A DNA stretch of 64,000 nucleotides from an uncultured Planctomycetota bacterium (GTDB lineage Bacteria > Planctomycetota > Planctomycetia > Isosphaerales > Isosphaeraceae). Positions 26,841 to 44,518 of the stretch are shown here, piece after piece. The stretch covers positions 128,001 through 192,000 of the forward strand of contig CAWGMQ010000011.1 of assembly GCA_963823665.1 (NCBI GenBank). The letters are read 5' to 3'. The position numbers were made by a program, and so were the translations under genes. The number at the start of each line of letters is the position of its first letter. Position 1 is the first letter of the stretch. Below the pieces are notes generated by a model, which saw only the letters and a program-made list of their open reading frames with translations, searched no databases and had not been told where the DNA came from.

Positions 26841-28745
26841 CTATCTTGCGGCCGCCGCAGGGACGTTAACCTGGCCGTCAAACGGCTCGGACACGGGAAG
26901 CACGAAGGTGTAATCGTGGACAAGCAGCCCCGTGGTGCCGACCATGAAGTCGCGGTTCTCGGCGACCGTCAAGTTAAAGACCATCTGGGTTGCGTCGCGC
27001 TCGATCGAGTCGACGGTGGCGAGACCGCCCACTGTGCGGAGGCGATCGCCCGCCTTCAGGTCGCGCGCCATGGTCCAGCCCTTGCCGGCCTTCCAGAAGC
27101 GGTGGATGCCGGTGGCGACGATGGTTTCGCTGCCGATCGCGAGGCGGAAGGTTTCCGCGGGGCCGGTCTTGTGGGTGACCAGCACGGGCTGATAAGACAG
27201 CGCGCCGGTCGTTGTGTGTTGTGACAGGACGCGGTCACCGACGGCGATCGATTCGATCTTGCGCGGGCCGATCAGGGTCTGCACCAAGGTGCCCGCGGCG
27301 AAGCAGGAAGGGCTGAAGATGATGGCAGGGAGATTCACGGCAAGATCCGGGAGCTCCACATCACTGACGTAGGTCGGCTTGGTTTCGGCATACCGATCGT
27401 CGTAGACGTAGCCAAGCTGGTCCGTCCACCACTTTTGCCAGAGCTGCGGATCCGCCGGCATTTTCTGGGCCGTGAGCGTTTCCAGAAGCGCCAGCAGCCG
27501 GCCGTTGATTTCGTTGATCTGCGCGTTCGCTTCTTCGATCGCTTGGATATCGTCCTCGATTGTCCGTTCGACGAGGAGGTTGGCTCGCCCGGTCGCTGCG
27601 AGGCCATCGGCCACCATGAAGCCCCATTGAGAGGCCAGCAACCGGTTGGTGAGAACAACCTGTTCGACGACAGCGGGCATCGCCATCATATTGGCGTGTA
27701 CTTTGCCAGAGCCGGCAGTCATGTTCAGGTCGGGCGAGCGATAGAGCCTCTGGAGGTCGAATTGTTCGCCGTCGACCAACAAGGCGGACGTCGAGCCCGG
27801 CCCCGTACCTCTCTTGAGCTCGTACTTAAACGGCTTGTGGAGCCGGTTGATCATCCAGCCGATTGTGTCGCGCGGATCACGGAACGTAACCGCCCGGGCC
27901 GCGCGGCTGCGAACTTCGCTCGACGGCTTGTCGATGGCGAGCACGAGCAGGCAGAACGATGCCCCGGGGCCTTCAATCTGCGAGAAAAGCTCAACCGCGA
28001 CGAGCTGCGCTTTCTCGCTGCCATTGGCGAAGACCTTCCAGATCATCGGAACTGCGCGGGGATCCGTCACCTGATAGAGTTCTTTCTCCGCCTTCAAGCG
28101 CCGCGTCTCGATGGTGCTTTCCACCGCTTCGCGCAGTTTTTCGAGGCGCGGCTTCCACTCTTTATCGGAGCGTTTCTGGCGATCGGCTTCGAGCTTCTGA
28201 GCTGCGAGCTGATCGGGCTTCATCCAGTGGTCGTGAACCCTCTTGAACCCAAGGCGGATCCATGCGACATCTCGCGACGGATCGAGGCGGGTCACCGCGA
28301 AGTAGTGGGCGCGAGATTCGTCCTTCAGGCCGTTGTCGATGCACCAGGCGGCGAGGCGCAACTGGGCATCGACGTTTTTCTGGGGTGTGCGGACGCGGCG
28401 ATCGAGGTATTCGCGGAAGATGGTTTGGGATTTCGAGTCGCTCTCGATCTCTCGCTCGACCTGGTCGGGCTTCACCCATCGTCCCTGGACGGCCACGAGG
28501 CCGAGCAAGCCGCGAGCGAGCAGATTGGCCGGGGCGAGGGAAACCGCGAGGTTCAAATGTTTGACACGCTCGGCCGTCATGCCGTGAGCTTCGCACCAGA
28601 GGGCGAGCTGAACGTGAGCGGCGGGGTTCTTGGCGGCCTTGGCGGCGGCGGCCTCGTAGGCGGCGCGATCCGTTGCGCTGGCGGTCTCGGTGGGTTTGCC
28701 ACCATCCCCCAGCATGACACAACAGAGCAGGATTACTTGAATCAT
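26841..28745 (-). CDS. Hint-domain protein, copy 9 (last transcribed)
   Basis: MIQVILLCC; ALWCEAH; LAAWC; W..WW; Hint from SCFAAGTLV via TGIHRFW to LLVHD (26913-27305); 23-aa tail. Confidence 0.92.
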   Translation of the reverse strand: MIQVILLCCVMLGDGGKPTETASATDRAAYEAAAAKAAKNPAAHVQLALWCEAHGMTAERVKHLNLAVSLAPANLLARGLLGLVAVQGRWVKPDQVEREIESDSKSQTIFREYLDRRVRTPQKNVDAQLRLAAWCIDNGLKDESRAHYFAVTRLDPSRDVAWIRLGFKRVHDHWMKPDQLAAQKLEADRQKRSDKEWKPRLEKLREAVESTIETRRLKAEKELYQVTDPRAVPMIWKVFANGSEKAQLVAVELFSQIEGPGASFCLLVLAIDKPSSEVRSRAARAVTFRDPRDTIGWMINRLHKPFKYELKRGTGPGSTSALLVDGEQFDLQRLYRSPDLNMTAGSGKVHANMMAMPAVVEQVVLTNRLLASQWGFMVADGLAATGRANLLVERTIEDDIQAIEEANAQINEINGRLLALLETLTAQKMPADPQLWQKWWTDQLGYVYDDRYAETKPTYVSDVELPDLAVNLPAIIFSPSCFAAGTLVQTLIGPRKIESIAVGDRVLSQHTTTGALSYQPVLVTHKTGPAETFRLAIGSETIVATGIHRFWKAGKGWTMARDLKAGDRLRTVGGLATVDSIERDATQMVFNLTVAENRDFMVGTTGLLVHDYTFVLPVSEPFDGQVNVPAAAAR

Positions 28746-28800
28746 GGATTCAGCTCCCGGGGAAGTTCCTGTTTGTCAACTGGGTGCGCCGGCGATCGTG

Positions 28801-30717
28801 TCAGCGGGGCACCGTCTGCGCCGCTGTGGCTGGGTGGTCGAACGGCTGGGAAACCGGCAGGACGAAACTGACGTCGTGAACCAGGCAACCGGCGTTTCCT
28901 ATCAGGAAGTCGCGATTCTCGGCCACGTTCAGGTTATACACACTCTGGGTGGCGTCGGGCTCGATCGATTGAACGGTTGTGGTGCCGGCGATTGCACGAA
29001 GACGATCACCTGGCTTCAAGTCGCGCGCCATGATCCATCCCTTGCCGGCCTTCCAGAATCGATGGATTCCCGTGGTGACGATAATCTCGCCGTCAATCGC
29101 GAGCCGGAACGTTTCCGCGCCGTTTCGTACGGTGGTATTGAGAACGGGCTGGAAAGAGAGGGCTCCGGTCGATGTGTCCTGAGAGAGCACGCGGTCGCCG
29201 ATGCTGAGCGACTCAATTTTCTTCAGACCGCCCGAGGTGTGCACCAAGGTGCCCGCTGCGAAGCAGGACATCTTGTAGTAGGACACCATCGGCAGAATAA
29301 CGGACACATCAGGGGCTTCCACCGTGTCGGTGTACAGGGGCTTGTTCTGATCCGACGGGTCGTTGTATGAGAGGCCGAGCTGCTCACCCCACCACTGTCG
29401 CCATGCCCCGGGAAGTTCTCCAAGCTTTTCGCCAGTCAGAGATTCGAGAAGAGCGAACGCGCGGCCGTTGGTCTCGTTGATTTGCGCGTTGGCGTCATCG
29501 ATCGTCCGGACGTCTTCTTCAAGCGATTGCCGGATGGTGTCATTTCGCGCCTGGCTTTGCGCAATCGCATCGGCGATCAGATTGGGCCATAGCGCTCTCA
29601 GCATGCGGTCCATGGGGATCGCCGCGCGCATCTGGCGCGCCGATTCCGCGGCCATGTTGTGCGATATCATGGCCGACATCAGCGGCACGAAGTTGAAATT
29701 CACGTCGGAGTAACGATAAAACCGCCTGCGGTCGAATTTCTCGCCGTCGACCAGCAGAGTGGCCGTCGAGCCACCACCGGCTCCTTCAATGACCTCGTAC
29801 TTGTAGGGTTTGCGGAGCAGGCTCGTGAGCCAGCCGATGACTTCGCGAGGATCGCGATACTTGAGCGCTCGGCCGGCGTGCGAACGCACTTCGCTCGAGG
29901 GACTATTGATCGCCAGTGCGAGGATGCAATACGACGCCCCTGGCCCGTCGATCTGCGAGAAAAGCTCGATCGCGACAAGCTGCATTTTCTCATTTCCGCC
30001 GCCGAAGACTTTCCAGATCGATGGGACAGCGCGGGGGTCGGTGATCTGGTAGAGTTCCTTCTCGGCTTTCAATCGCCGCGATTCCGTCGGGCTTGCAAGC
30101 GCGTCTCGAAGCTTTTCGAGCCGCGGCTTCCACAGTGAGTCGGCGCGTTTCTGGTGTTCGGCTTCGAGCTTCTGGGTGGCCAGGTCCTCAGGCTTCGACC
30201 AGCGGTCGTGTTGCTTTTTGTAGCCCAATTTCACCCAGGCGATATCTCGTGATGGGTCGAGACGAGTGACCAGGTGGTAGTGGGCAATGGCCTCGTCCTT
30301 GAGTCCGTTCTCAAGGCACCAGGCGGCGAGTCGCAACTGGGCGTCGACGTTTTTTTGAGGTGTGTGCACGCGGCGATCGAGGTACTCGCGGTAGAGGGCG
30401 TCGAACTTCGGGTCGGCGTGGATTTCCTTCTCGACCTGGTCGGGTTTGGCCCATTTGCCCTGGAAGGCCATCAGGCCCAAGAGGGCACGGGCGAGCGCAT
30501 TTGAAGGGTCGAGAGACGACGCGATGGTCAGGTGCTTGATTCGCTCGGAGGAGAGGCCGTGGGTTTCGCACCAGAGTGCCAACTTGACGTGTGCGGCCGC
30601 GCTCTTGCCGGCTTTGGCGGCGGCGGCTTCGTAGGCGGCTCGATCGCTGGGGCTCGGGTCGGCGGGTTTGTTGCCGTCAGTGAGGATGGCACAGCAGAGC
30701 AGGATGACGTGGACCAT
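28801..30717 (-). CDS. Hint-domain protein, copy 8
   Basis: Same architecture; MSCFAAGTLV...CLVHD. Confidence 0.92.
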   Translation of the reverse strand: MVHVILLCCAILTDGNKPADPSPSDRAAYEAAAAKAGKSAAAHVKLALWCETHGLSSERIKHLTIASSLDPSNALARALLGLMAFQGKWAKPDQVEKEIHADPKFDALYREYLDRRVHTPQKNVDAQLRLAAWCLENGLKDEAIAHYHLVTRLDPSRDIAWVKLGYKKQHDRWSKPEDLATQKLEAEHQKRADSLWKPRLEKLRDALASPTESRRLKAEKELYQITDPRAVPSIWKVFGGGNEKMQLVAIELFSQIDGPGASYCILALAINSPSSEVRSHAGRALKYRDPREVIGWLTSLLRKPYKYEVIEGAGGGSTATLLVDGEKFDRRRFYRYSDVNFNFVPLMSAMISHNMAAESARQMRAAIPMDRMLRALWPNLIADAIAQSQARNDTIRQSLEEDVRTIDDANAQINETNGRAFALLESLTGEKLGELPGAWRQWWGEQLGLSYNDPSDQNKPLYTDTVEAPDVSVILPMVSYYKMSCFAAGTLVHTSGGLKKIESLSIGDRVLSQDTSTGALSFQPVLNTTVRNGAETFRLAIDGEIIVTTGIHRFWKAGKGWIMARDLKPGDRLRAIAGTTTVQSIEPDATQSVYNLNVAENRDFLIGNAGCLVHDVSFVLPVSQPFDHPATAAQTVPR

Positions 30718-30774: not shown

Positions 30775-32739
30775 TCACTTGGGCGCCGCCTGCGCCGGGC
30801 TGGTCAGGCGGTCGAACGGATCGGACACCGGTAAAACGAAGCTGAAGTCGTGGACCAGCAGGCCGGCCGTGCCGACCAGGTAGTCGCGGTTTTCCGCGAC
30901 CGTCAAGTTGTAGACCATTTGTGTCGGGCCGGGCTCGATCGATTCGATCGTGGTGGCGCCGCCCAACATGCGGAGGCGGTCACCGGCTTTCAGGTCGCGG
31001 GCCATGGTCCAGCCGTTGCCGGCTTTCCAGAAGCGGTGGATACCGGTGGCGACGATGGTTTCGCTGTCCTGCGTGATTCGCAATGTAGCGGATGGACCAT
31101 TCACGTGAGTGGCCAGAACCGGTTGGAACGACAGTGCGCCGGTGGATGTCTGCTGGGACAGGATGCGGTCGCCCACGGTCACCGATTCAATCTTTTGAGG
31201 GCCGGTGAGCGTTTGGACCAACGTTCCGGCAGCGAAGCAGGCACCATGCGGCCGCGCGGGTGCACCCGGCACGAAGCCCGTCACCACGGAGACCTGGATG
31301 TTGGGCGTGTCAACCGAATCGACAAAGGTCGGTTTCGCACTGGAGTAGCGATCGTCATAAACATAACCGAGCTGTTCCGCCCACCACCGCCGCCATGCCT
31401 GGGGGTCGGCGCCCAATTTCTGCCCGGTCAGCGATTCAAGGACAGGCAACAATCGCTCGTTGAATTGATCGATTTGAGTGTTGGCGGCCTGGATCATCCG
31501 GATGTCGTCCTCGAGCGTCTTCTGCACAGCGGCTGTCGCTTGAAGCGATTGTTGCATTGCAGCGGCGATCGACATCTCCCGTTCCCATGCGAGATTCAAA
31601 TTGAACTGAGCACTGGCTGTCAGTGCCTGCGGGGCCCTGGCCGAGGACGTCGGCACGACCATGCCGCCGGCCATCGGGGCAGCCGTCGGCATGGAAGCCA
31701 CGGGCGGCGACATGCGCGTCTCGACGGTGGGAAACCAATAGAAACGCTGAAGGTCGAACTGCTCGCCGTCGACGACGAGTGAGCCGGTCGAGCCAGAGCC
31801 AGTTCCCGGGTTGATCTTGTACTTGTACGGCTTGTGAACCATGTTGATCAGCCGGCCGATCACGTCGCGCGGGTCGCGCCCGAGGAGTGCCTGCGCGGCA
31901 CGTTCGCGCACGTCGGCTGAAGGTGAATCGAGAGCAAGCAGTGCAATACCGCTCGAGGCGGTCGGCCCCTCGATCTGGCTGAACAGCTCGACCGCGACGA
32001 GCTGGATTGTCGGGCTGCCAGAGGCGAAGGTCGTCCAGATCATCGGCACGGCGCGGGGATCCGTGATCTGATAGACTTCGCGCTGAGCCTTGAGCCTGCG
32101 GGCCTCAATCGTGCTTTCCAGTGCGGCGCGTAGTTTTTCCAGTCGCGGTCTCCACTCCTTATCGGCGCGCTTCTGTCGATCGGCTTCGAGTTTCTGGACG
32201 GCCAGGTCGTCGGGCTTGACCCAGCGATCGTGGTTTTTCTTGTAGCCGAGGCGGACCCACGCGATATCGCGGGAGGGGTCGAGGCGGGTGACCACGTTGT
32301 AGTGAGCCATGGCCTCATCCTTGAGCCCCTTTTCCAGGCACCAGGCAGCGAGTCGCAACTGGGCGTCCGCGTTCTTCTGGGGTGTGCGAACGCGGCGATC
32401 AAGGTATTCGCGAAAGACGGCCTGGAGCTCGGGATCCTCGTGGATTTCCTTCTCGACCTGGTCGGGTTTGGCCCATTTGCCTTGGAAGGCGATCAGGCCG
32501 AGGAGCGCTCGGGCAAGCGCGTTTGAGGGGTCGAGAGACGACGCGATGGAGAGGTGCTTGATTCGCTCGGCGGAGAGGCCGTGGGTTTCGCACCAGAGGG
32601 CGAGCTTCACGTGCGCGGCGGCGTTCTTGCCGGCGTTGGCGGCGGCAGTCTGATAGGCAGCGCGATCGGCGGGTGTCGCCTCGGCGAGCTTGCCGTCGTC
32701 GCCCAACATGAGGAAGCAGAGCAGAATTGCTTGGACCAT
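30775..32739 (-). CDS. Hint-domain protein, copy 7
   Basis: Start set at MVQAILLC by alignment and ggag RBS; GACFAAGTLV...LLVHD. Confidence 0.92.
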   Translation of the reverse strand: MVQAILLCFLMLGDDGKLAEATPADRAAYQTAAANAGKNAAAHVKLALWCETHGLSAERIKHLSIASSLDPSNALARALLGLIAFQGKWAKPDQVEKEIHEDPELQAVFREYLDRRVRTPQKNADAQLRLAAWCLEKGLKDEAMAHYNVVTRLDPSRDIAWVRLGYKKNHDRWVKPDDLAVQKLEADRQKRADKEWRPRLEKLRAALESTIEARRLKAQREVYQITDPRAVPMIWTTFASGSPTIQLVAVELFSQIEGPTASSGIALLALDSPSADVRERAAQALLGRDPRDVIGRLINMVHKPYKYKINPGTGSGSTGSLVVDGEQFDLQRFYWFPTVETRMSPPVASMPTAAPMAGGMVVPTSSARAPQALTASAQFNLNLAWEREMSIAAAMQQSLQATAAVQKTLEDDIRMIQAANTQIDQFNERLLPVLESLTGQKLGADPQAWRRWWAEQLGYVYDDRYSSAKPTFVDSVDTPNIQVSVVTGFVPGAPARPHGACFAAGTLVQTLTGPQKIESVTVGDRILSQQTSTGALSFQPVLATHVNGPSATLRITQDSETIVATGIHRFWKAGNGWTMARDLKAGDRLRMLGGATTIESIEPGPTQMVYNLTVAENRDYLVGTAGLLVHDFSFVLPVSDPFDRLTSPAQAAPK

Positions 32740-32803
32740 GATTTTCTCCAAAGGCGGGGCGATACTCGCGATTCTGAATATTGCACGTTGGCAATGAGGA
32801 CAA

Positions 32804-34717
32804 CTACTTCTGCGCTGGCGGCGCCTCCGTTCGCTGGCGGTCGAATGGCTCGGTAACCGGGAGGACGAAGCTGAAATCGTGCACCAGCAGACCGGAGGAG
32901 CCTACCAGGAAGTCACGGGCCTGGGCGACGTCCAGGTTATACACCTTCTGGGATGGGCCCGGCTCGATCGATTCAACTTTCACGACGCCGCAGATCATGC
33001 GGAGCCGATCGCCGACGCTCAAGTCGCGTGCCATGGTCCAGCCTTTGCCGGCCTTCCAGAAGCGGTGAATGCCGGTGGCGACGATGGTTTCGCCGCCTGC
33101 GGAAATTCGCAGCGTATCGGCGGGGCCATTCACGTGCGTGGCGAGCACGGGCTGGAACGAGAGGGCACCGGTTCCGGTGTCCTGCGAGAGGACGCGGTCG
33201 CCGAGGGCGATCGCCTCGATCTTGCGTGGGCCGGCGAAGGTCTGGACCAAGGTTCCGGCTCCGAAGCAGGCGTTGTGGGGAACCAGGATCGGAAACCCGA
33301 CGAAATCGGTAAACGTGGGCTTGTTCTCGGCATATCGGTCATCGATGACGACGCCCTGCTGGTCTGCCCACCACGTTTGCCAGGCCTGGGGATCAGCACC
33401 AAAACTCTGGCCGGTGAGCGATCGCAGGAGCGGCAGCACAGTGTCGTCGGTCTGTCTGATTTGCGCGTTGACCTGCTCGATCGTTTCGACGTCGCTTTCC
33501 AGTTTCTGCTGCACGATCTGATCGCGGCGAACGCTTTCCTGGAAGAGCGCCGTGGCGACTTGCTGTTGTGCCAGTGCGTGAGCCCGGCCGGAGATCGTCA
33601 TCACGGCCGCAGCGCCGTTGCCGGACTGACCGGCGGCGGGTGTGGGAGTGACCAGCATCGCATTCCAGGCAATTGTTGCGGGTGGGACCAAGCCAACCTC
33701 CACGTCGGGGAAACGATAGAAGCGCCGGATGTCGAACCGTTCGCCGTCGACGAAGAGGGCGCCGATCGATCCAGGGCCGGATCCCGGCCTGATTTCGTAT
33801 TTGAATGGCCGATGAATGGCGGCTACGAGCCAGCCGATCACGTCGCGGGGGTCGCGGTTCGTCAGGGCTTTGGCGGCGCGCGAGCGGACATCGGCCGAGG
33901 GCCTCTCGACGGCGAGCACGGCCAGTCCGAACGATGCCGCGGGCCCTTCGATCTGGGAGAGCAGCTCGACGGCGACGAGCTGCATCTTTTCACTGCCGTG
34001 GCCGAAGATCTTCCAGATCATCGGCAGCGCGCGGGGATCGGTTACCTGGTAGAGCTCGCGCTCGGCTTTCAACCGGCGCGTCTCGACCGGGCTTTCCATG
34101 GCTTCGTGCAGCTTCTCGAGTCTCGTCTTCCACTCTTTATCGGCGTGCTTCTGGCGCTCAGCTTCGAGCTTCTGGGCCGCGAGAACCTCGGGCTTTGACC
34201 AGCGGTCGAGGTGCTTCTTGTAGCCAAGGCGAATCCAGGCGATGTCTCGCGACGGATCGAGGCGGGTGACCAGATGGTAGTGGGCCATGGCCTCGTCCTT
34301 GAGTCCGTTTTCGAGGCACCAGGCGGCCAGGCGCAACTGGGCGTCGACGTTTTTTGGAGGTGTGCGCACGCGGCGATCGAGGTACTCGCGGACGAGGGCC
34401 TGGAGCTTGGGGTCGGCGTGGATTTCCTTCGCGACCTCGTCGGGTTTGGCCCATTTGCCCTGGAAGGCCATCAGGCCCAAGAGGGCGCGGGCCAGCGCAT
34501 TTGAAGGGTCGAGAGACGACGCGATGGTCAGGTGCTTGATTCGCTCCGAGGAAAGGGTGTGGGTTTCGCACCAGAGGGCGAGCTTCACGTGCGCGGCGGC
34601 GTTCTTGCCGGCCTTGGCGGCGGCCGTTTCGTAGGCGGCGCGATCGCTTGCAGCTCGCTCGGGGGGTTTGCCGCCGTCGGTGAGGATGGCACAACAGAGC
34701 AGGATGGCGTGGAGCAT
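32804..34717 (-). CDS. Hint-domain protein, copy 6
   Basis: Start set at MLHAILLCC; NACFGAGTLV...LLVHD. Confidence 0.92.
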   Translation of the reverse strand: MLHAILLCCAILTDGGKPPERAASDRAAYETAAAKAGKNAAAHVKLALWCETHTLSSERIKHLTIASSLDPSNALARALLGLMAFQGKWAKPDEVAKEIHADPKLQALVREYLDRRVRTPPKNVDAQLRLAAWCLENGLKDEAMAHYHLVTRLDPSRDIAWIRLGYKKHLDRWSKPEVLAAQKLEAERQKHADKEWKTRLEKLHEAMESPVETRRLKAERELYQVTDPRALPMIWKIFGHGSEKMQLVAVELLSQIEGPAASFGLAVLAVERPSADVRSRAAKALTNRDPRDVIGWLVAAIHRPFKYEIRPGSGPGSIGALFVDGERFDIRRFYRFPDVEVGLVPPATIAWNAMLVTPTPAAGQSGNGAAAVMTISGRAHALAQQQVATALFQESVRRDQIVQQKLESDVETIEQVNAQIRQTDDTVLPLLRSLTGQSFGADPQAWQTWWADQQGVVIDDRYAENKPTFTDFVGFPILVPHNACFGAGTLVQTFAGPRKIEAIALGDRVLSQDTGTGALSFQPVLATHVNGPADTLRISAGGETIVATGIHRFWKAGKGWTMARDLSVGDRLRMICGVVKVESIEPGPSQKVYNLDVAQARDFLVGSSGLLVHDFSFVLPVTEPFDRQRTEAPPAQK

Positions 34718-34747: not shown

Positions 34748-36676
34748 TTACTTGGAGCCAACTGCCGCCGTGCTTGTCAGGCGGTCAAACGGTTCAGAAA
34801 CCGGGAGTACGAAACCGTAGTCGTGTACGAGCAGGCCGGCGGAGCCGACCATGAAGTCGCGGTTCTGTGCGACATCGAGGTTATACACCTTCTGGGATGG
34901 GCCGGGCTCGATTGATTCAATTGTCACGACGCCGCCGATCATGCGGAGGCGATCGCCGGCGCTCAAGTCGCGGGCCATGGTCCAGCCTTTGCCGGCTTTC
35001 CAGAATCGGTGGATGCCGGTGGCGACGATCGTTTCGCGACCTGCGGAAATACGAAGCGTCTCCGTGGGTCCATTCACGTGGGTAGCAAGCACGGGCTGGA
35101 ACGAAAGGGCACCGGTCGTTGTGTCCTCCGAGAGGATGCGGTCGCCGATGGCGATCGACTCGATCGTGCGCGGGCCGGCGAGTGTCTGAACCAATGTCCC
35201 GGCGGCGAAACAGGAATGGTGCGGAACGACGTCCGGCAGCGAGACGAAATCGGTGAACGTGGGCTTGTTCTGGGCCTGGGCATACCGGTCATCAACGACG
35301 ACGCCGAGCTGGTCTGCCCACCAAGTTTTCCACGCCTGCGGGTCGGCGCCAAAATTCTGGCCGGTGAGCGAACCGAGCAGCGGGAGCACGCGGTCGTTGG
35401 TCTGGTTGATCTGGGCATTCACGTCCTCGACCATCGCGACGTCGCTTTCGAGTTTCTGCCGCACCACCTGGTCGCGAGCGAAGGCTTCTTGCAACATTAT
35501 GGCGCCGAGCTGCTGCCGCCCAATTGCATAGGCCCTGCCCGACAGCGTCATCATGGTCGACACCTGCGACGCGCTCGAACCGGCCTGCGTGGTGACGGGA
35601 GCCGGGTTCAAAATCGGCAGGTTCGCGAGAACCTGAACCGGTGGCATCAATTGAGCCTCCACCTCCGGGAAGCGATAGAATCGCCGGATGTCAAATCGTT
35701 CGCCGTCCACAAGAAGCGATCCGGTCGATCCGGGGCCGGCTCCGGGCTTGATTTCGTACTTGAACGGCCGATGGATGGCGCTCACGAGCCAGCCAATGAC
35801 GTCTCGGGGATCGCGGTTCGTGAGGGCTTTGGCGGCACGCGAGCGGACGTCGGCCGACGTCCGTTCGAGCGCTAGCACGGCCAGTCCGAACGACGCCGCT
35901 GGCCCTTCGACCTGGGAGAGGAGCTCGACGGCGACGAGCTGCATCTTTTCACTGCCGTTGCCGAAGGTTTTGAAGATCATTGGAAGCGCTCGGGGATCGG
36001 TCACCTTGTAGAGCTCACGCTCGGCCTTCAGCCGCCGTGTCTCGATCGAGCTTTCCATGCCGTCGCGCAGCTTCTCGAGCCGCGGCTTCCACTCCTTATC
36101 GGCTAGTTTCTGGCGATCGGCTTCAAGCTTCTGGGCCGCGAGAACCTCGGGCTTTGACCAGCGGTCATGGTGCTTCGTGAATCCGAGCCGAAGCCAGGCG
36201 ACATCCCGAGAAGGGTCGAGTTGCGTCACGACGTGGTAGTGCGCCATCGCCTCGTCCTTGAGTCCGTTTTCGAGGCACCAGGCGGCGAGTCGCAACTGGG
36301 CGTCGACGTTTTTTTGAGGTGTGTGCACGCGGCGATCGAGGTACTCGCGGTAGAGGGTGTCAAACTTCGGGTCGGCGTGGATTTCCTTCTCAACCTGGTC
36401 GGGTTTGGCCCATTTGCCCTGGAAGGCCACCAAGCCCAAGAGGGCGCGGGCAAGCGCATTTGAAGGGTCGAGAGACGACGCAATGGTCAGGTGCTTGATT
36501 CGCTCTGAGGAAAGGCCGTGGGTTTCGCACCAGAGAGCGAGCTTGACGTGCGCGGCGGGGTTTTTGCCGGCTTTGGCGGCGGCCGCGTCGTAGGCGGCTC
36601 GATCGGCGGTGGTCGCCTCGGCGGGTTTTCCGCCGTCACCCACCAACACAAGGCAGAGCAGGATTGCGTGGAGCAT
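34748..36676 (-). CDS. Hint-domain protein, copy 5
   Basis: MLHAILLC; HSCFAAGTLV...LLVHD. Confidence 0.92.
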   Translation of the reverse strand: MLHAILLCLVLVGDGGKPAEATTADRAAYDAAAAKAGKNPAAHVKLALWCETHGLSSERIKHLTIASSLDPSNALARALLGLVAFQGKWAKPDQVEKEIHADPKFDTLYREYLDRRVHTPQKNVDAQLRLAAWCLENGLKDEAMAHYHVVTQLDPSRDVAWLRLGFTKHHDRWSKPEVLAAQKLEADRQKLADKEWKPRLEKLRDGMESSIETRRLKAERELYKVTDPRALPMIFKTFGNGSEKMQLVAVELLSQVEGPAASFGLAVLALERTSADVRSRAAKALTNRDPRDVIGWLVSAIHRPFKYEIKPGAGPGSTGSLLVDGERFDIRRFYRFPEVEAQLMPPVQVLANLPILNPAPVTTQAGSSASQVSTMMTLSGRAYAIGRQQLGAIMLQEAFARDQVVRQKLESDVAMVEDVNAQINQTNDRVLPLLGSLTGQNFGADPQAWKTWWADQLGVVVDDRYAQAQNKPTFTDFVSLPDVVPHHSCFAAGTLVQTLAGPRTIESIAIGDRILSEDTTTGALSFQPVLATHVNGPTETLRISAGRETIVATGIHRFWKAGKGWTMARDLSAGDRLRMIGGVVTIESIEPGPSQKVYNLDVAQNRDFMVGSAGLLVHDYGFVLPVSEPFDRLTSTAAVGSK

Positions 36677-36733: not shown

Positions 36734-38707
36734 TCACTTGGACGCCGCCGGCGCCACGATCGTTTGGCGGTCGAACGGTTCGGGCACCGGTAAAACGAAG
36801 CTGAAGTCGTGGACCAGCAGGCCGGCCGCGCCGACCAGGTAGTCGCGGTTTTCCGCGACGGTCAAGTTATAGACCATTTGTGTCGGGCCGGGCTCGATCG
36901 ATTCGATCGTGGTGGTGCCACCGATCATTCGGAGGCGGTCGCCGGCTTTCAGGTCGCGGGCCATGGTCCAGCCTTTGCCGGCTTTCCAGAAGCGGTGGAT
37001 GCCGGTGGCGACGATGGTTTCGCCGGCCTGCGTGATTCGCAATGTGGCCGATGGACCATTCAGGTGGGTGGCCAGAACCGGCTGGAACGACAGAGCGCCG
37101 GTGGATGTCTGCTGGGACAGGATGCGGTCGCCCACGGTCACCGATTCAATCTTTCGAGGGCCGGTGAGCGTCTGGACCAACGTTCCGGCAGCGAAGCATG
37201 CGCCATGCGGCTGGTGGACCGGTCCCCCGAATACGAGCAGAAAGATGTGGCGGTGCGCCGCACTCGCGCCGATGTCGGGCGGGTTGACCGAATCGACGCG
37301 GGTTGGTTTGGCACTGGGATAACGATCGTCATCGACATAACCGAGCAGATCCGTCCACCAACGCCGCCATGCCTCGGGATCGGCGCCCAGACTCTGCCCG
37401 GTGAGCGTTTCAAGGATAGGGAGCACGCGGTCGTTCAGTTGATCGATCTGCGTGTTCAAGTCCTGTATCATTCTGATGTCGTCCTCGAGCTTCTGCTGCA
37501 CGGAGGCGTTCGCTTGAAGCAACTGTCGGGTCGCGGTGGCGGTCGACATCTCCGGTTCCGGTCTGGCGGTTGCATTGTAATAGGCAAAGGATGTTGCCGT
37601 GTGACCGGCGCCCAAATCCTTGATGAGGACGTGGCCACCAGCGGCGGTGACAGTCGTGAGCTCGAACGCGGGAGGCGCCATGCGCGGATCGAAGGTGGGA
37701 AACCGGTAGAAACGTTTCAGGTCGAACTGCTCGCCGTCGACCTCGAGCGAGCCAGTCGAGCCCGAGCCTGTTCCCTGGTTGATCTTGTACTTGTAGGGCT
37801 TGTGAACCATGTAGATCAGCCGGCCAATCACGTCGCGCGGGTCGCGCTCGAGGAGAGCCTGCGCGGCACGTTTGCGCACGTCCGGTGAAGGTGAATCGAG
37901 AGCAAGCAGTGCAATACCGCTTGAAGCGGTCGGCCCCTCGATCTGGCTGAACAGCTCGACCGCGACGAGCTGGATCGTCTCGCTGCCATTGCAGAAGGTC
38001 CTCCAGATCATCGGCACGGCGCGGGGATCGGTGATCTGATAGACTTCGCGCTGGGCCTTGAGCCTGCGGGTCTCAATCGTGCTCTCGAGCGCGCCTCGTA
38101 GTTTTTCCAGTCGCGGCCGCCACTCCTTATCGGCGCGCTTCTGTCGTTCGGCTTCGAGTTTCTGGGCAGCCAGGTCGTCGGGCTTGACCCAGCGGTCGTG
38201 GGTTTTCTTAAAGCCGAGGCGGACCCACGCGATATCGCGCGAGGGGTCGAGGCGGGTGACCACGTTGTAGTGAACCATGGCCTCGTCCTTGAGTCCGTTT
38301 TCGAGGCACCAGGTGGCGAGTCGCAACTGGGCGTCGACGTTCTTCTGGGGTGTACGAACGCGGCGATCAAGGTATTCCCGGATCAGTGCCTGGAGCTTGC
38401 GGTCGTCGTGGATTTGCTTTTCGACCTGATCCGCTTTGGCCCATTTGCCCTGGAAGGCCATCTGGCCCAGGAGGCCGCGGGCGAGGACGTTCGAGGGGTC
38501 GAGGGTCGATGCGATGGTCAGATGCTTGGCTCGCTCGGAGGAGAGACCGTGAGTTTCGCACCACAGGGCAAGCTTGACGTGCGCGGCGGCGTTCTTGCCG
38601 GCCTTGGCGGCGGAAGCCTCGTAGGCGGCTCGATCGCCGGCGCTTGAATCCGCGGGTTTGCCGCCGTCGGCGAGCAAGGCGACGCAGAGCAGGATGACAT
38701 GGACCAT
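36734..38707 (-). CDS. Hint-domain protein, copy 4
   Basis: Start set at MVHVILLC; GACFAAGTLV...LLVHD. Confidence 0.92.
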   Translation of the reverse strand: MVHVILLCVALLADGGKPADSSAGDRAAYEASAAKAGKNAAAHVKLALWCETHGLSSERAKHLTIASTLDPSNVLARGLLGQMAFQGKWAKADQVEKQIHDDRKLQALIREYLDRRVRTPQKNVDAQLRLATWCLENGLKDEAMVHYNVVTRLDPSRDIAWVRLGFKKTHDRWVKPDDLAAQKLEAERQKRADKEWRPRLEKLRGALESTIETRRLKAQREVYQITDPRAVPMIWRTFCNGSETIQLVAVELFSQIEGPTASSGIALLALDSPSPDVRKRAAQALLERDPRDVIGRLIYMVHKPYKYKINQGTGSGSTGSLEVDGEQFDLKRFYRFPTFDPRMAPPAFELTTVTAAGGHVLIKDLGAGHTATSFAYYNATARPEPEMSTATATRQLLQANASVQQKLEDDIRMIQDLNTQIDQLNDRVLPILETLTGQSLGADPEAWRRWWTDLLGYVDDDRYPSAKPTRVDSVNPPDIGASAAHRHIFLLVFGGPVHQPHGACFAAGTLVQTLTGPRKIESVTVGDRILSQQTSTGALSFQPVLATHLNGPSATLRITQAGETIVATGIHRFWKAGKGWTMARDLKAGDRLRMIGGTTTIESIEPGPTQMVYNLTVAENRDYLVGAAGLLVHDFSFVLPVPEPFDRQTIVAPAASK

Positions 38708-38737: not shown

Positions 38738-40619
38738 TCATCTGGAAGCAATGGGTGCAGCGTTTGTGACGCGGTCAAACGGCTCGGAAACCGGTTGCAC
38801 GAAGCTGAAGTCGTGCACGAGCAGGCCGGCGCTGCCGACCAGGAAGTCGCGGTTCTCGGCGACCGTCAGGTTATAGACCTTCTGGGTCGGTCCGGGCTCG
38901 ATTGACTGAATGGATACGATTCCGCCAATCATGCGCAGGCGATCGCCGGATTTCAGGTCGCGGGCCATGGTCCAGCCGTTGCCGGCCTTCCAGAAGCGGT
39001 GGATGCCGGTGGCGACGATGGTTTCGCTGCCGAGCGCGATTCGCAGTGTTTGGGACGGGCCGTTCAGATGGGTGGCGAAAACGGGCTGGAACGACAGTGC
39101 GCCGGTTGAAGATTGCTGAGACAGGACGCGGTCGCCGGCGGCGATGGATTCGATCTTGCGCGGGCCTGTGACGGTTTGAACCAGGGTCCCGGCGGCGAAG
39201 CAGGCCGTGTGCGGAACGATCACCTCTGTGAAGAGGGGCTTATCCTCGGAATAGCGCGAGTCGTAGACATAGCCTAGCTGCTCGGTCCACCACTTCTTCC
39301 ACTGTTCGGGGTCGACGCCGAAGTTCTGGTTGGTGAGCGACTCGAGCAGGGGCAGGGTGCGCTCATTCGTCTGGGTGATCTCGGCGTTCCATTTCTCCAG
39401 GTCGCGAACGTCGTCTTCGATCCGACGCTGGGTCAGCTCCGCCACTTGCTGAGAGCGCACAGACGGTTCCGGAAAATAGGAGGTGCCCGGGAAGGCGCTC
39501 GTGAGCATTTGACCGGCGGATCTCGCAGAACCGGTATGTCCGACGTTTGCGCTGGCCTGCTGCATCCCGGATGTAAAATTCAGGACTGGAACGAGCCGCA
39601 AGTCGAGGGGAGGAGGTTCATAAAACCGCTCGAGGTCGAATCGTTCTCCATTAACCTTCAGCAAGGCAGGCGTGCCCGGACCTTGCTCCTGCGTTAGCTC
39701 GTATTGATACGGCTTGTGGATGACGGTGACCAACCAGCCTATGATGTTGCGCGGATCGCGGCGTGCCAGGGCGCGCCTCGCCTGGTCGCGGATCGCAGGC
39801 GACGGCCTCTTGATTGCCAGTGCGGCGATCCAGAACGATGCCGCCGGTCCTTCGATCTGCGAGAGCAGTTCAACGGCGACCACCTGACTTTGCTCGCTTC
39901 CATTTCCCAGGATCATGGCAATCAGCGGGACGGCGGGGGTCGTTCACTTGATAGACCTCTCGTTCCGCCTTCAGCCGCCGTGCCTCGATCTTGCTCTCGA
40001 GTCCGTCGCGCAGTTTCTCGAGACGCGACTTCCACTGTACGTCGGCGCGTTTCTGGCGGTCGGCTTCGAGCTTCTGCGCGGCCAGGTCTTCAGGCTTCTG
40101 CCAGCGATCCTTGTGCTTCTTGTAGCCGAGGCGTATCCAGGCAATGTCGCGGGCGGGGTCCAAGCGCGTCACCAGATAGTAGTGAGCCATCGCCTCTTCA
40201 TTGAGCCCGTGTTCGAGGCACCAATTCGCGAGCCGCAACTGGGCGTCAGCCTTGTTCCGGGGAGCCTGCACGCGGCGCTCGAGGTATTCCCGGAGCCGGG
40301 CCTGGAACTTGGGGTCGTTCTGGATGTCCTGCTCGACCTGGTTGGGTTTCGCCCATTTTCCCTGGAACGGCACCAGCCCCAGCAAGCCTCGCGCCTGAGT
40401 ATTCGGGGGGTCGAGAGCGACGGCGAGCGTCAGATGCTTGGCTCGCTCGGCCGTGAAGCCGTGCGCCTCGCACCAGAGCGCGAGCTGGACGTGCGCGGCG
40501 GCGTTCTTGCCGGCCTTTGCGGCGGCAGCCTCGTAGGCGGAACGATCGGCAGCGTTAGATTCGGCGGGCTTGCTGCCGCCGTCGAGCATGGCACAACAGA
40601 GCAGGATCGCGTGGAGCAT
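38738..40619 (-). CDS. Hint-domain protein, copy 3 (1-bp frameshift at ~39930)
   Basis: ORFs 39870..40619 and 38738..39916 join into one paralogue; compared with copy 1, one base is missing in the NDPRAVP codons. Confidence 0.88.
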
Positions 40620-40651
40620 GGTTTTCCTTCCGCACAGATAGCGCGGCGGGC

Positions 40652-42589
40652 TTACTTGGAAGCAATCGGCGCAGTGTTCGTCAGGCGGTCAAATGGTTCG
40701 GAAACCGGGAGCACGAAACCGTAGTCGTGTACCAGCAAGCCGGCGGAGCCGACCAAGAAGTCGCGGTTCTCAGCGACGTTCAATTTAAAGACCATTTGGG
40801 TGGCACCTGGCTCGATCGAGTCGATGATGGCGACACCGCCCAGCATGCGGAGGCGATCGCCGGCTTTCAGGTCGCGCGCCATGGTCCAGCCCTTGCCGGC
40901 CGTCCAGAAGCGGTGGATGCCGGTGGCGATGATGGTTTCGCCGGCGAGCGAGATCCGGAACGTTTCGGCGGGACCGTTCAAGTGTGTGGCCAGAACGGGC
41001 TGGAAGGAAAGCACGCCCAAGGTTGTGTGTTGCGAAAGGACGCGGTCGCCGACGGCGATCGATTCGATCTTTCGCGGGCCGCCCAACGTTTGGACCAAGG
41101 TTCCCGAAGCGAAACACGCATGATGCAAGAATACGTTCACATTAACGATGGGGAGTTGTACGGTCAGATCTGGTGCAGTCACGACTTCGGAAAAGGACAG
41201 CTTACCGTCGGAATCACTGTCGTAATTGACGTATCCGAGCTGGTCAGTCCACCAATTTCGCCACGCGTCGGGATTAATGCCGAGCTTCTGGCCGGTTCGC
41301 GATTCCAGGATCGGCAGCAATCGCGCATTGGATTCATCGATTCGCGCATTGACCTCGTCGATCGCGCGAGCGTCATCGTAAACAGCTCGCTGCATCTCGC
41401 CCACTTGCTGCAGGTTCGCGACCGTTGCTTGCGCGAGGATTGCGGATTGCCTCCGCAAGGAGGCAGCTTGGATCGCCGAGGCCTCGGCGATCATCTGGGT
41501 CGCCTGCTGCGGGGTGGCGTCGGGTTGGGGAACCATCAGCACGATGTGGCTCACGGGAACCAGGCGAACGTCGAGGTCCGGGAAACGATAGAGTCGTTGG
41601 AGATCGAACCGTTCTCCGTCGACAAAGAGCGTGCCGGTTGATCCGGGATTCGCTCCGGGCCTGACTTCGTACTTGAAGGGTTTGTGAAGCCGGTTTATCA
41701 TCCAGCCGATGACATCGCGAGGATCGCGGTGTGCGATCGCCTGGGCGGTTCGCGCGCGGATGGCGCTCGAGGGATTGTCGATCGCCATTAACGGCAGGCA
41801 GAACGATGCCCCAGGGCCCTCGATCTGGGTGAACAGCTCGACCGCGACGAGCTGCATCTTTTCGCTGCCGCTGGCAAACGTTCTCCACATCGCCGGCACA
41901 GCGTGAGGGTCGGTAATTTGGTAAAGTTCCTTCTCGGCCTTCAGCGGCCGTGTCGCGACCGAGCTTTCCAGGGCATCGCGCAGCTTCTCGAGCCGGGATT
42001 TCCGGTGCATATCAGCACGCTTCTGGCGATCGGCTTCGAGCTTCTGGGCAGCCAGGTCGTCGGGCTTGACCCAGCGGTCGCGGTGTTTCTTGTAGCCCAG
42101 GCGCAGCCAGGCGATATCCCGGGACGGGTCGAGCCCGGTCACCACGTGGTAGTGAGCCAGGGCCTCGTCCTTGAGCCCGTTTTCGAGGCACCAGGCAGCC
42201 AGCCGCAACTGGGCGTCAGCATTTTTCGAGGGAGTGCGCACCCGTCGCTCGAGGTACTCACGAAAGAGAGCAAGCAGCTTGGGATCGTCGTCCAGGTCGT
42301 GCTTGACCTGTTCGGGCTTGGCCCATTTTCCCTGGAAGGTGACCAGGCCCAGAAGGCCCCGGGCCAAGGCATTTGCCGGGTCGAGCGAGAGAGCCAGGTT
42401 GAGATGCTTCACTCGCTCGGACGTGAGTCGATGCGCTTCGCACCAGAGAGCGAGCTGCACTTGCGCGGGGGCGTTCTTGCCGGCCTTGGCGGCGGCGGTT
42501 TCGTAGGCGGCTCGATCGCTGGCGTTTGATTCGGCGGGCTTGCTGCCGCCGGCGAACAGGGCACAAGAGAGCAGGATTGCGTGGAGCAT
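40652..42589 (-). CDS. Hint-domain protein, copy 2
   Basis: HACFASGTLV...VFKLNV...LLVHD. Confidence 0.92.
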   Translation of the reverse strand: MLHAILLSCALFAGGSKPAESNASDRAAYETAAAKAGKNAPAQVQLALWCEAHRLTSERVKHLNLALSLDPANALARGLLGLVTFQGKWAKPEQVKHDLDDDPKLLALFREYLERRVRTPSKNADAQLRLAAWCLENGLKDEALAHYHVVTGLDPSRDIAWLRLGYKKHRDRWVKPDDLAAQKLEADRQKRADMHRKSRLEKLRDALESSVATRPLKAEKELYQITDPHAVPAMWRTFASGSEKMQLVAVELFTQIEGPGASFCLPLMAIDNPSSAIRARTAQAIAHRDPRDVIGWMINRLHKPFKYEVRPGANPGSTGTLFVDGERFDLQRLYRFPDLDVRLVPVSHIVLMVPQPDATPQQATQMIAEASAIQAASLRRQSAILAQATVANLQQVGEMQRAVYDDARAIDEVNARIDESNARLLPILESRTGQKLGINPDAWRNWWTDQLGYVNYDSDSDGKLSFSEVVTAPDLTVQLPIVNVNVFLHHACFASGTLVQTLGGPRKIESIAVGDRVLSQHTTLGVLSFQPVLATHLNGPAETFRISLAGETIIATGIHRFWTAGKGWTMARDLKAGDRLRMLGGVAIIDSIEPGATQMVFKLNVAENRDFLVGSAGLLVHDYGFVLPVSEPFDRLTNTAPIASK

Positions 42590-42622
42590 CGTTTTCCTCT
42601 CTCCCGCACGATGGCGACGAGG

Positions 42623-44518
42623 TCACCTGGGCGTTGCCGGCGTTGTGTTGGTTTGGCGATCGAATGGCTCGGAAACCGGTTGCACGAAGCTGAAGTCGTG
42701 CACGAGCAGGCCGGCGCTGCCGACCAGGAAGTCGCGGTTCTCGGCGACCGTCAGGTTATAGACCTTCTGGGTCGGTCCGGGCTCGATTGACTGAATGGAC
42801 ACGATTCCGCCAATCATGCGCAGGCGATCGCCGGATTTCAGGTCGCGGGCCATTGTCCAGCCCTTGCCGGCCTTCCAGAAGCGGTGGATGCCGGTGGCGA
42901 CTATGGTTTCGCTGCCGAACGCGATTCGCAGTGTTTGGGACGGGCCGTTCAGATGGGTGGCGAGAACGGGCTGGAATGACAGTGCGCCGGTTGAAGATTG
43001 CTGAGACAGGACGCGGTCGCCGACGACGATGGATTCGATCTTGCGCGGGCCTGTGATCGTTTGAACCAGGGTTCCGGCGGCGAAGCAGGCCGTGTGCGGA
43101 ACCGGAGCGATCATCTCCATGAAGACGGGCTTAGGCTCGGAAGAGCGCGAGTCGAAGACATAGCCTAGCTGCTCGGTCCACCACTTCTTCCATTGTTCGG
43201 GGTCGAGGCCGAAGTTCTGATTGGTGAGCGACTCGAGCAGTGGCAGGACGCGCTCATTCGTCTGGTTGATCTGGGCGTTCCGTTCCTCCAGGTCGCGAAC
43301 GTCGTCTTCGATCCGACGCTGGGTTAGCTCCGCCGATTCCTGAGAGCGCAGAGTCGGTTCCGTGACGTAGGAGGCGCCGTGGTAGGCGCTCGTGAGCATT
43401 TGACCGGCGAAACTCCCAGAACCGGTATAACCGCCGTGTGCGCTGACATGCTGCATCCCGGATGTAAAATTCAGGACTGGAACGAGCCGGAAGTCGACGG
43501 CAGCAGGTTCGTAAAACCGCTCGAGGTCGAATCGTTCTCCGTTAACCTTCATGAAGGCAGGGGTGCCCGGACCTTGCTCCTGCGTTAGCTCGTATTTATA
43601 CGGCTTGTGGATGACAGTGACCAACCATCCTATGATGTCGCGCGGATCGCGGCGTGCCAGGGCTCGCCTCGCCTGGTCGCGGATCGCAGGCGACGGCTTG
43701 TTGATTGCCATTGCGGCGAGCCAGAACGATGCCGTCGGTCCTTCGATCTGCGAGAGCAGCTCAACGGCGACGACCTGACTTTGCACGTTTCCATTCCCCA
43801 GGATCCTGGCAATCAGCGGGACGGCGCGAGGGTCGTTCACTTGATAGACCTCTCGTTCCGCCTTCAGCCGCCGTGCCTCGATCTTGCTCTCGAGTCCGTC
43901 GCGCAGTTTCTCGAGACGCGATTTCCACTGTTCGTCGGCGCGTTTCTGGCGGTCGGCTTCGAGCTTCTGCGCGGCCAGGTCTTCAGGCTTGAACCAGCGA
44001 TCCCTGTGCTTTTTATAGCCGAGGCGTATCCAGGCAATGTCGCGGGAGGGGTCGAGGCGCGTCACCAGATAGTAATGAGCCATCGCCTCTTCATTGAGGC
44101 CCTGTTCGAGGCACCAATTCGCGAGCCGCAACTGGGCGTCAGCCTTGTTCTGGGGAACCTGCACGCGGCGCTCGAGGTATTCCCGGAGCCGGGCCTGGAA
44201 CTTGGGGTCGTTCTGGATGTCCTGCTCGACCTGGTTGGGTTTCGCCCATTTTCCCTGGAACGGCACCAGCCCCAGCAAGCCTCGCGCCTGAGTATTCGGG
44301 GGGTCGAGAGCGACGGCGAGCGTCAGATGCTTGGCTCGCTCGGCCGGGAAGCCGTGCGCCTCGCACCACAGGGCGAGCTGAACCTGATCCGCGGCGTTTT
44401 TCCCCGCCTTGGCTACGGCGGCTTGGTAGGCGAGGCGATCGGTTGCAGTTGGCTCTGGCTCGGCGGTCTTGCCGCCGTCTGCAAACATGGCACAACAGAG
44501 CAGGATGGCGCGGACCAT
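42623..44518 (-). CDS. Hint-domain protein, copy 1 (first transcribed)
   Basis: ggaggaag RBS; TACFAAGTLV (Cys codon 43085-43087)...LLVHD. Confidence 0.92.
   Translation of the reverse strand: MVRAILLCCAMFADGGKTAEPEPTATDRLAYQAAVAKAGKNAADQVQLALWCEAHGFPAERAKHLTLAVALDPPNTQARGLLGLVPFQGKWAKPNQVEQDIQNDPKFQARLREYLERRVQVPQNKADAQLRLANWCLEQGLNEEAMAHYYLVTRLDPSRDIAWIRLGYKKHRDRWFKPEDLAAQKLEADRQKRADEQWKSRLEKLRDGLESKIEARRLKAEREVYQVNDPRAVPLIARILGNGNVQSQVVAVELLSQIEGPTASFWLAAMAINKPSPAIRDQARRALARRDPRDIIGWLVTVIHKPYKYELTQEQGPGTPAFMKVNGERFDLERFYEPAAVDFRLVPVLNFTSGMQHVSAHGGYTGSGSFAGQMLTSAYHGASYVTEPTLRSQESAELTQRRIEDDVRDLEERNAQINQTNERVLPLLESLTNQNFGLDPEQWKKWWTEQLGYVFDSRSSEPKPVFMEMIAPVPHTACFAAGTLVQTITGPRKIESIVVGDRVLSQQSSTGALSFQPVLATHLNGPSQTLRIAFGSETIVATGIHRFWKAGKGWTMARDLKSGDRLRMIGGIVSIQSIEPGPTQKVYNLTVAENRDFLVGSAGLLVHDFSFVQPVSEPFDRQTNTTPATPR

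Follow-up and report, generated by a model that had tools for sequence, protein, structure and literature searches.

A planctomycete array of nine paralogous scaffold genes with a terminal Hint domain ending in His-Asp, encoding putative self-cleaving precursors

We describe a family of planctomycete proteins with a terminal Hint domain, starting from a window of 64,000 nucleotides, which is the whole stretch of DNA analysed here (positions 128,001 to 192,000 of contig CAWGMQ010000011.1, from an uncultured Planctomycetota bacterium of the Isosphaeraceae). On the minus strand of this window, at 26841-44518, lies a head-to-tail run of nine paralogous genes whose products combine a hydrophobic N-terminus, a helical-repeat scaffold, two variable regions, a Hint domain ending in His-Asp and a short tail. 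We tentatively read these products as precursors of an exported rod-like scaffold from which the Hint domain is removed by N-terminal self-cleavage, the thioester being hydrolysed and a variable tip exposed. Taking hydrolysis and transfer to an acceptor together, we consider it probable that the Hint domain makes an N-terminal cut, since the residue set for the N-terminal reaction is conserved, that for the C-terminal reaction is altered, and natural relatives correspond to the predicted N-terminal product.

A scaffold followed by a Hint domain ending in His-Asp

An earlier reading made from the sequence alone (the sequence-only reading) had listed nine head-to-tail paralogues on this stretch, each with a hydrophobic N-terminus, helical repeats, a HEAT-like region, variable regions, a W..WW motif, a Hint domain and a short tail, and both the run of genes and this layout were recovered here, the latter from the sequences and from an AlphaFold model of copy 5 (mean pLDDT 87). 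In that model a leader (residues ~1-14) is followed by a TPR-like part (23-175) of two units with a small hairpin closing each, HEAT repeats (176-300), three beta strands (306-335), variable region 1, a helix of 69 residues (370-438), the WxxWW helix, a strand (473-478), variable region 2, the Hint domain (489-619) and the tail. Every copy has the hydrophobic N-terminus, an ALWC repeat, an A[ANT]WC repeat, the HEAT-like region, the long helix and W..WW; the Pfam matches to TPR_14 and HEAT_2 are weak. The eight intact copies average 14% identity to one another in variable region 1. Across 132 members, longer versions of one variable region tend to accompany longer versions of the other (Spearman 0.42, uncorrected for relatedness). 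As had been stated, the variable sequence lies N-terminal of the Hint domain.

A model of the beta-sheet and helix stalk had no Foldseek match at E<=0.001 in PDB or BFVD, and a wide VIA search gave nothing significant, its best hit (Z 6.3) falling on HEAT-like helices; this does not establish a new fold. The ESM Atlas returned only hypothetical or HEAT-repeat Planctomycetota clusters, NCBIfam had nothing near its cut-off for eight family proteins, and PADLOC had no match for five. Two distant planctomycete proteins (L039:5643-7064 and L062:1114-2517) resemble the scaffold in a single LxxWC TPR-like unit, in HEAT repeats and in the motif of the closing helix; they lack the long helix and the Hint domain and may share the scaffold base.

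The identification of the C-terminal domain as Hint held up in both profile and structure searches. PT-HINT (PF07591) scores above its 27.7-bit cut-off in 9/9 copies, and the best Foldseek match of the copy 5 domain is 2lwy, a type A bacterial intein-like domain (BIL), with a TM-score of 0.90 on the target, an rmsd of 1.2 and 33% identity, followed by Tetrahymena BIL2 (6y75), inteins and Hedgehog. Hint (PF01079) is below cut-off for the array copies, and Hint_2 (PF13403), which covers approximately the first 33 positions, is below it in 8/9. According to the available excerpts of four reviews (PMC4031507, PMC5874633, PMC7765530, PMC7664689), Cys1, the block-B Thr and His and residue F:4 drive the N-terminal acyl shift, and the C-terminal cut is driven by a terminal Asn with the block-F and block-G His, some inteins using Asp or Gln in place of the Asn; type A BILs are described as having a His-Asn end and giving mainly cleavage. 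All nine array Hints carry Cys1 and TGIH (the block-B TxxH), preceded at the predicted cut site by Ser or Ala, and block-F Asn is present in 8/9, with Lys in copy 2. The block-G-like end aligns with that of 2lwy; where 2lwy has His-Asn, however, all nine copies end in His-Asp, and all nine have Arg at the position of its block-F His. The +1 residue is Phe, Tyr or Val, thus no nucleophile, and the tail is 23 amino acids long in 9/9 copies, with a PFD motif.

These features extend far beyond the array. A single-sequence search gave 362 proteins, 120 of which were listed (7 of them from the window) and 116 parsed; among the matches listed, the Hint domain ends in His-Asp in 116/116 and the tail has at most 39 residues in 115/116. 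A profile of the Hint-free part matched 971 clusters at 50% identity (E<1e-30), and the best 150 of the 971 comprised 114 with a full Hint domain, five with a partial one and 31 with none, many of these 31 looking like fragments or frameshifts. The 114 full-Hint representatives, under 50% identical to one another, have Cys1 in 110 cases, block-F Asn in 113, His-Asp in 109 (none of the other five being His-Asn), Ser or Ala at -1 in 99, a PFD-like motif in 98 and a tail of at most 37 residues in 110. Their +1 residue is Asn in 89, Ser or Thr in 2 and never Cys, and just 41 have the block-F His. Block-B His was found in 133 of 138 alignment rows, and tail residues Phe630 and Asp631 in 130 of the 138. 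No family member was met among proteins of 1125-3210 amino acids, which is weak evidence against a payload.

Cleavage before the Hint domain and its alternatives

In the mechanism that we favour, the scaffold comprises a TPR/HEAT base, a stalk of beta strands with one long helix, and a variable tip, and the His-Asp Hint domain would serve as a removable maturation module. The short N-terminal leader would export the precursor, and Cys1, aided by the block-B Thr and His, would convert the Ser/Ala-Cys bond to a thioester, as the conserved residues and known Hint chemistry suggest. Splicing is disfavoured, since a terminal Asn, a +1 nucleophile and the block-F His are all missing; the thioester would be resolved, most simply by water, freeing the Hint domain together with the tail. 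A beta strand next to variable region 1 would then form the end of the mature scaffold. Copies arising by tandem duplication, recombination among them and the fast evolution of the tip would supply each cell with a set of tip variants. As to function, the mature scaffold would most likely bind or adhere through its variable tip at the cell envelope, and this is the weakest step of the scheme.

The sequence-only reading had taken the proteins to be exported, and the leaders may point the same way: they are hydrophobic in the array copies (Kyte-Doolittle, KD11 2.3-3.0), and outside the leader the eight intact copies have no segment above KD 1.65. In six of the 150 representatives (P0171, P0204, P0211, P0230, P0253 and P0254) an extracytoplasmic function (ECF) sigma factor is followed by a hydrophobic helix (KD 2.0-2.7), the scaffold and a His-Asp Hint domain; the five included in a tree are scattered in one weakly supported part of it. 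The hydrophobic leaders, the lack of any further hydrophobic segment and the helix between sigma factor and scaffold together suggest that the scaffold module lies outside the cytoplasmic membrane; planctomycete ECF sigma factors, for their part, bear many kinds of extension. A lipoprotein attached through a leader Cys was considered and set aside, as that Cys is not conserved among the diverse leaders.

Relatives lacking the Hint domain bear directly on the site of the predicted cut. On contig C8 of the same genome, four tandem genes encode the scaffold with one TPR unit, ending where the Hint domain would begin, with no Hint remnant near them, and most other genomes have a single match to this Hint-less orthologue. 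Of 121 family genomes searched, 45 had matches; 30 loci were fetched, and 27 complete open reading frames (ORFs) from 26 loci were analysed, four split or open-ended loci being excluded. The distance from a conserved Trp to the C-terminus of these proteins is 44-57 residues (median 52, n=27), and from the same Trp to the cut site of Hint-bearing members it has a median of 48 (quartiles 40-53, range 29-78, n=127). They carry no tail-like sequence; Asp is the next-to-last residue in 27/27, and the last is Thr in 10, Ser in 7, His in 5, Gly in 4 and Met in 1. In a FastTree phylogeny of 88 sequences over 284 conserved columns, 14/14 Hint-less proteins formed one clade with support 1.0 within the Hint-bearing radiation, the outgroups being Hint-bearing as well, which fits a single loss of the Hint domain; the nesting of this clade among Hint-bearing members implies that the scaffold can work without Hint domain and tail. 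The Hint-less stalk was modelled as well (pLDDT 93); two long strands, 101-111 and 123-135, are seen there together with a strand at the C-terminus, 227-238. Pairing of these strands, which we infer, would bring the C-terminus next to the variable tip. Self-cleavage at X|CF, as the sequence-only reading had proposed, is the likeliest reaction, with the Hint-less clade ending at the same place as new evidence that points to it.

Several observations weigh against the favoured mechanism. The near-invariant Asp and the conserved tail are unexplained by water, save as folding or capping elements. Some inteins, as an excerpt of PMC4031507 describes, cut through a C-terminal Asp, so that C-terminal cleavage is also possible. 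The root of the tree depends on distant outgroups. Identity between the Hint-less clade and the array proteins is ~30%, and the two differ in how the tip is built, so the Hint-less proteins may not mirror the mature form of the array products. Positive charge is scant or absent in the n-region of the leaders. Finally, Cys1 is absent from 4/114 representatives, and three proteins, L033:9093-10640 and L036:7964-9031 of this genome and L101:172-2139, lack it while keeping His-Asp and the tail; hence cleavage is not universal, and the members without Cys1 are possibly non-cleaving variants.

The last of these points raises the question of whether the Hint domain cuts at all or remains attached as a structural or chaperone cap. 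The change from Asn to Asp at the domain end, the paralogues without Cys1 and the missing block-F Asn of copy 2 would agree with such a cap, which we nevertheless regard as unlikely, since Cys1 in 110/114 representatives, block-B His in 133/138 rows and a small -1 residue across very divergent members form the pattern of an active N-terminal site.

Along with the Asp that is fixed in the Hint-less clade, the unexplained Asp and tail keep alive a second outcome of the same N-terminal cut, a Hedgehog-like ligation in which the thioester is passed to a specific acceptor (an envelope lipid, a glycan, an amine or another subunit) and the C-terminus of the scaffold is covalently anchored or cross-linked. 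The invariant Asp would serve as base or relay, and the acceptor would be recruited by the conserved tail. Leader, N-domain, terminal Hint domain and short conserved tail make up the Hog layout as it appears in the excerpts of PMC5874633 and PMC12054796; the Asp is near-invariant across seven families; the tail is the most constrained region (ratio of nonsynonymous to synonymous change, pN/pS, 0.18-0.20); and the Asp fixed next to last in 27/27 Hint-less proteins implies that the chemistry of the C-terminus matters. However, the +1 Cys that Hedgehog requires as C143 (PMC12054796, in the part available) is missing, PF01079 stays below its cut-off, the tail motif varies by family (PFD versus VPG-L/V), no conserved partner gene turned up in 27 fetched regions plus the window, and the Hint-less clade persists without any Hint domain. 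We therefore see ligation as a possible but doubtful outcome. A bacterial counterpart of Hedgehog, in which a planctomycete-specific class of Asp-terminated Hint would covalently couple exported scaffolds with variable tips to an envelope lipid, glycan or neighbouring subunit, and in which the Hint-less orthologue with its invariant next-to-last Asp would be the core or acceptor subunit of that surface assembly, appears to us slightly more doubtful still. Equating the terminal Asp itself with Hedgehog C143 was ruled out, as C143 has been equated with intein C+1 (PMC12054796, same part).

A third outcome would be splicing of the type A BIL kind by cyclisation of the Asp, with the Hint domain excised at both ends and the conserved tail ligated to the scaffold tip, which would account for the conservation of the tail. 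The nearest structure, 2lwy, is a splicing-capable type A BIL, the penultimate His is retained, and, according to the excerpt of PMC4031507, some inteins end in Asp, and ligation by type A BILs proceeds through a freed amine. We consider this outcome improbable, given the Arg in 9/9 copies and the 41/114 count at the block-F His position, the Hint-less members devoid of any tail-like sequence, and the fact that even type A BILs give mostly cleavage products (same excerpt). N-terminal cleavage followed by hydrolysis thus stays our preferred, if tentative, reading.

Relation to known Hint systems

The array is not a PT-HINT toxin system, and by the defining residues its Hint domain is neither a type A or B BIL, an intein nor a Hog domain; it would work most like a cleaving BIL or Hog. 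With type A BILs (CthBIL4, 2lwy; Tetrahymena BIL2, 6y75) it shares the fold, Cys1, TxxH, block-F Asn, the penultimate His and the lack of a +1 nucleophile; unlike them, it ends in His-Asp, usually lacks the block-F His, and sits at the end of one conserved scaffold with only a short conserved tail behind it. This His-Asp subtype matches no BIL type in the excerpts of the four reviews (PMC4031507, PMC5874633, PMC7765530, PMC7664689). It also differs from type B BILs in having a block-G-like end and in its Hint_2 scores, and from class 1 inteins in not being inserted in a conserved host protein before a Cys, Ser or Thr of a C-extein.

With PT-HINT toxins the array shares the PF07591 match, and NCBI names one member 'polymorphic toxin-type HINT domain-containing protein'. 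In those systems, however, the Hint domain stands directly before a toxin domain (Zhang et al. 2012, PMC3482391, as excerpted), whereas in the array no toxin domain follows it, there is no immunity gene, and the variability lies upstream. An RHS protein of the same genome (L038:6267-9164), which has a His-Asn Hint domain and a long C-terminal region, is just 36% identical to the array in this domain. Two further Hint ORFs of this genome are a truncated one near the Hint-less array (L031:18583-19998) and a small one of the His-Asn type (L040:5912-6433).

Hedgehog and Hog proteins (HhC; 1at0, 6tyy) have in common with the array a presumably exported N-domain, a terminal Hint domain and a C-terminal tail, and of their reaction only the N-terminal step is predicted for the array. 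The array differs from them in the lack of a C143 equivalent at +1, in the low PF01079 score, in Ser or Ala instead of Gly at -1, in a tail of 23 residues, and in its bacterial TPR/HEAT scaffold. The excerpt of Burglin 2008 (PMC2362128) lists uncharacterised bacterial proteins with signal peptide, N-domain and terminal Hint, among them Myxococcus MXAN_6253 and Photorhabdus plu1731; by description, the only level at which we compared them, these differ in two conserved upstream cysteines and in coming from myxobacteria and gammaproteobacteria, with no planctomycete in the legend.

No description of the family was found in the literature, which was judged mostly by titles and abstract openings; within the text available to us, a 2025 Planctomycetota review does not contain 'intein', an ECF reclassification paper contains neither 'Hint' nor 'intein', and an umbrella-toxin preprint has Hint only ahead of a toxin. 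The family is probably new; Amitai 2003, Dassa 2004 and two planctomycete genomics papers or supplements could mention planctomycete His-Asp Hints. It brings together, as one large family with a Hint domain ending in His-Asp, proteins that automatic annotation labels as toxin-type, and its many natural Asp-terminated Hints make the chemistry of Asp at an intein C-terminus directly testable. If the thioester were transferred, this would be a new bacterial route of anchoring or cross-linking and possibly a ligation tool. The family may also supply a component of the planctomycete cell surface, which is poorly understood, and has a member in a cultured species, Aquisphaera giovannonii OJF2_03810. 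The His-Asp end, the conserved tail, the Hint-less orthologue and the fusions to ECF sigma factors had all escaped the sequence-only reading.

The array, its copies and its surroundings

The array is not an assembly artefact, the concern that the sequence-only reading had set out for checking: its copies are divergent and under purifying selection, a same-genus genome (G035) has a syntenic array of eight copies and a remnant behind the same upstream hydrolase gene, and one short-read contig spans the junction of copies 5 and 6 without differences, although it possibly comes from the same site as the assembly and is hence not independent. Short-read contigs match pieces of the array at 99-100%, and the GC content is level throughout. 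The eight intact copies encode 631-657 residues and are 57-62% identical to copy 1. The statements that all copies are full-length and that the spacers measure 30-57 bp needed correction: in array order the spacers are 33, 32, 30, 57, 30, 64, 57 and 55 bp, and copy 3 is frameshifted, consisting of two ORFs of 249 and 392 aa and lacking 2 nt relative to copy 1 around codon 229. This frameshift may be an indel error in the sequence, since splits also occur in a neighbouring gene (one of six is split here yet whole in G035) and in family genes elsewhere in this genome (7 of 12 examined), or copy 3 may be a pseudogene.

The copies differ in history from part to part. Copy 3 is a recent duplicate of copy 1, with a 189-nt identical run and a Hint domain 95% identical. 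Copy 8 is 89% identical in DNA to copies 5 and 6 in the TPR part, with a Hint domain 68-73% identical to all others, and copies 7 and 4 are 92-95% identical in HEAT and Hint DNA but only 57% in variable region 1. Four variant types (copies 4, 6, 8 and 9) stand in the same order in G035, with 63-84% identity in the variable part, and in the tree the window and G035 copies join three other proteins with support 1.0. Among the eight intact copies pN/pS is ~0.3 in TPR, HEAT and Hint and 0.18 in the first 12 tail residues. Five close pairs pooled gave 0.97 for variable region 1, 0.60 for variable region 2, 0.24 for Hint and 0.20 for the tail, variable region 1 differing from Hint (p=4e-10) and not from neutrality. 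We accordingly make no case for positive selection on variable region 1, although single close pairs reach 1.95. These patterns point to birth-and-death evolution with the tip under relaxed or mixed selection. Of the diversified repertoire proposed earlier, the variable regions stand; the neutral rate of variable region 1 does not demonstrate selection for diversity. No diversity-generating retroelement or invertase is among the annotated genes of the window.

A freed scaffold or variable tip could also act as an antibacterial effector of an atypical competition system, given the PT-HINT-type domain, the tandem expansion, the mosaic copies and a tip that evolves four times faster than the Hint domain. 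We hold this to be very unlikely. No toxin or defence profile matched, the 30-64 bp spacers are too small for an immunity gene, the tip lacks a membrane-spanning segment, the order of variant types is kept in a second genome, and a conserved, mostly single-copy Hint-less orthologue together with the sigma-factor fusions better fits a housekeeping role at the envelope. With tails of 23 residues in all copies and such spacers, the earlier claim that toxin tips and room for immunity genes are lacking is upheld.

Of 60 other host-family genomes, 51 had matches to a full-length profile, a few weak ones being perhaps ordinary Hints, and named homologues (P0109 and the Aquisphaera protein) point to the Isosphaeraceae. 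Six other families are represented, among the matches listed, by 24 high-scoring ORFs in 21 genomes; these have the same layout, with a His-Asp end in 21/24 and tails that are mostly VPG-L/V-like rather than PFD, so that the family is present in seven Planctomycetia families. An N-terminal profile found only weak, partial matches in 11 of 200 genomes across the phylum, and when 150 genomes of the class were searched with a Hint-plus-tail profile, 84 gave matches, many of these being ordinary toxin Hints. Tandem copies, 2 to 8 per locus, occur in 15 of 19 genomes, which were chosen for clustered or top hits, so that this is not a frequency. The array singled out by the sequence-only reading is real, and it is one large instance of a tandem arrangement common in the family. 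Given the same layout in six other families and the arrays of the host family, the family is old in Planctomycetia and tandemly expanded in the Isosphaeraceae. This genome has 17 Hint-bearing and four Hint-less family genes. The 1031-residue protein P0020, one copy reading through into the next, is probably an assembly error.

Table 1. Coordinates of the array copies, of example regions in copy 5 and of related features (window positions unless another contig is named)
Feature	Coordinates	Strand	Details
Copy 1, first transcribed	42623..44518	-	631 aa; Hint 42695-43087; Cys478
Copy 2	40652..42589	-	645 aa; Hint 40724-41116; Lys in place of block-F Asn
Copy 3, frameshift near 39920	38738..40619	-	ORFs 39870-40619 and 38738-39916; Hint 38810-39202
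Copy 4	36734..38707	-	657 aa; Hint 36806-37198; variable part 84% identical to one G035 copy
Copy 5 (P0001, structure modelled)	34748..36676	-	642 aa
Copy 5 Hint (example)	34820..35212	-	Cys1, TGIH, block-F Asn, Arg at block-F His position, His-Asp end
Copy 5 variable region 1 (example)	35462..35665	-	low model confidence
Copy 5 variable region 2 (example)	35213..35302	-	ends at predicted cut site
Copy 6	32804..34717	-	637 aa; Hint 32876-33268
Copy 7	30775..32739	-	654 aa; Hint 30847-31239
Copy 8, mosaic	28801..30717	-	638 aa; Hint 28873-29265
Copy 9, last	26841..28745	-	634 aa; Hint 26913-27305
Region upstream of array, 257 bp	44519..44775	-	partly conserved in G035; presumed promoter or leader
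Hint-less array	G000:C8:1754786-1760211 (L031:9786-15212)		four paralogues, one frameshifted, closely similar spacers

In the region upstream of the array no sigma-70-like site was found, and an Rfam search of the whole window gave no match. Scans for promoter-like sites (4 versus 2.6 expected), for terminator-like sites (29 versus 19.9 expected, mostly on the opposite strand) and for inverted repeats were uninformative. A short stretch resembling this upstream region also occurs in the spacer between copies 6 and 7 (32740-32803) and is a possible regulatory site.

The neighbours of family genes were compared over the 27 fetched regions and the window, and no generally conserved partner gene emerged. 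In other genera, arrays of 2-5 copies occupy one conserved locus (L044, L045, L047, L049, L050 and L056), beside hflX/truB and/or a divergent conserved pair, one gene of which has no Pfam match and the other a Big_5 Ig-like domain. The hflX/truB locus with the divergent gene pair is common to five to six genomes and shows a fixed location only. In the window, a PSCyt1/PSCyt2/PSD1 gene and a DUF1501 gene lie directly downstream on the same strand (22670-26835); these PSD1/PSCyt2 and DUF1501 genes are not beside the G035 array, where a kinase-TPR gene is found instead. At 45950-50714 there is a large DUF7133/HEAT/cytochrome c gene with a frame change near 49600-49720, which is a single 1594-aa ORF in G035. 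Positions 1-21000 of the window hold a cluster of Ser/Thr kinase, WD40, FGE-sulfatase/LRR, NHL, fn3 and DUF4082 genes, and at 19293-20858 a glycine-rich repeat protein without a Pfam match is encoded.

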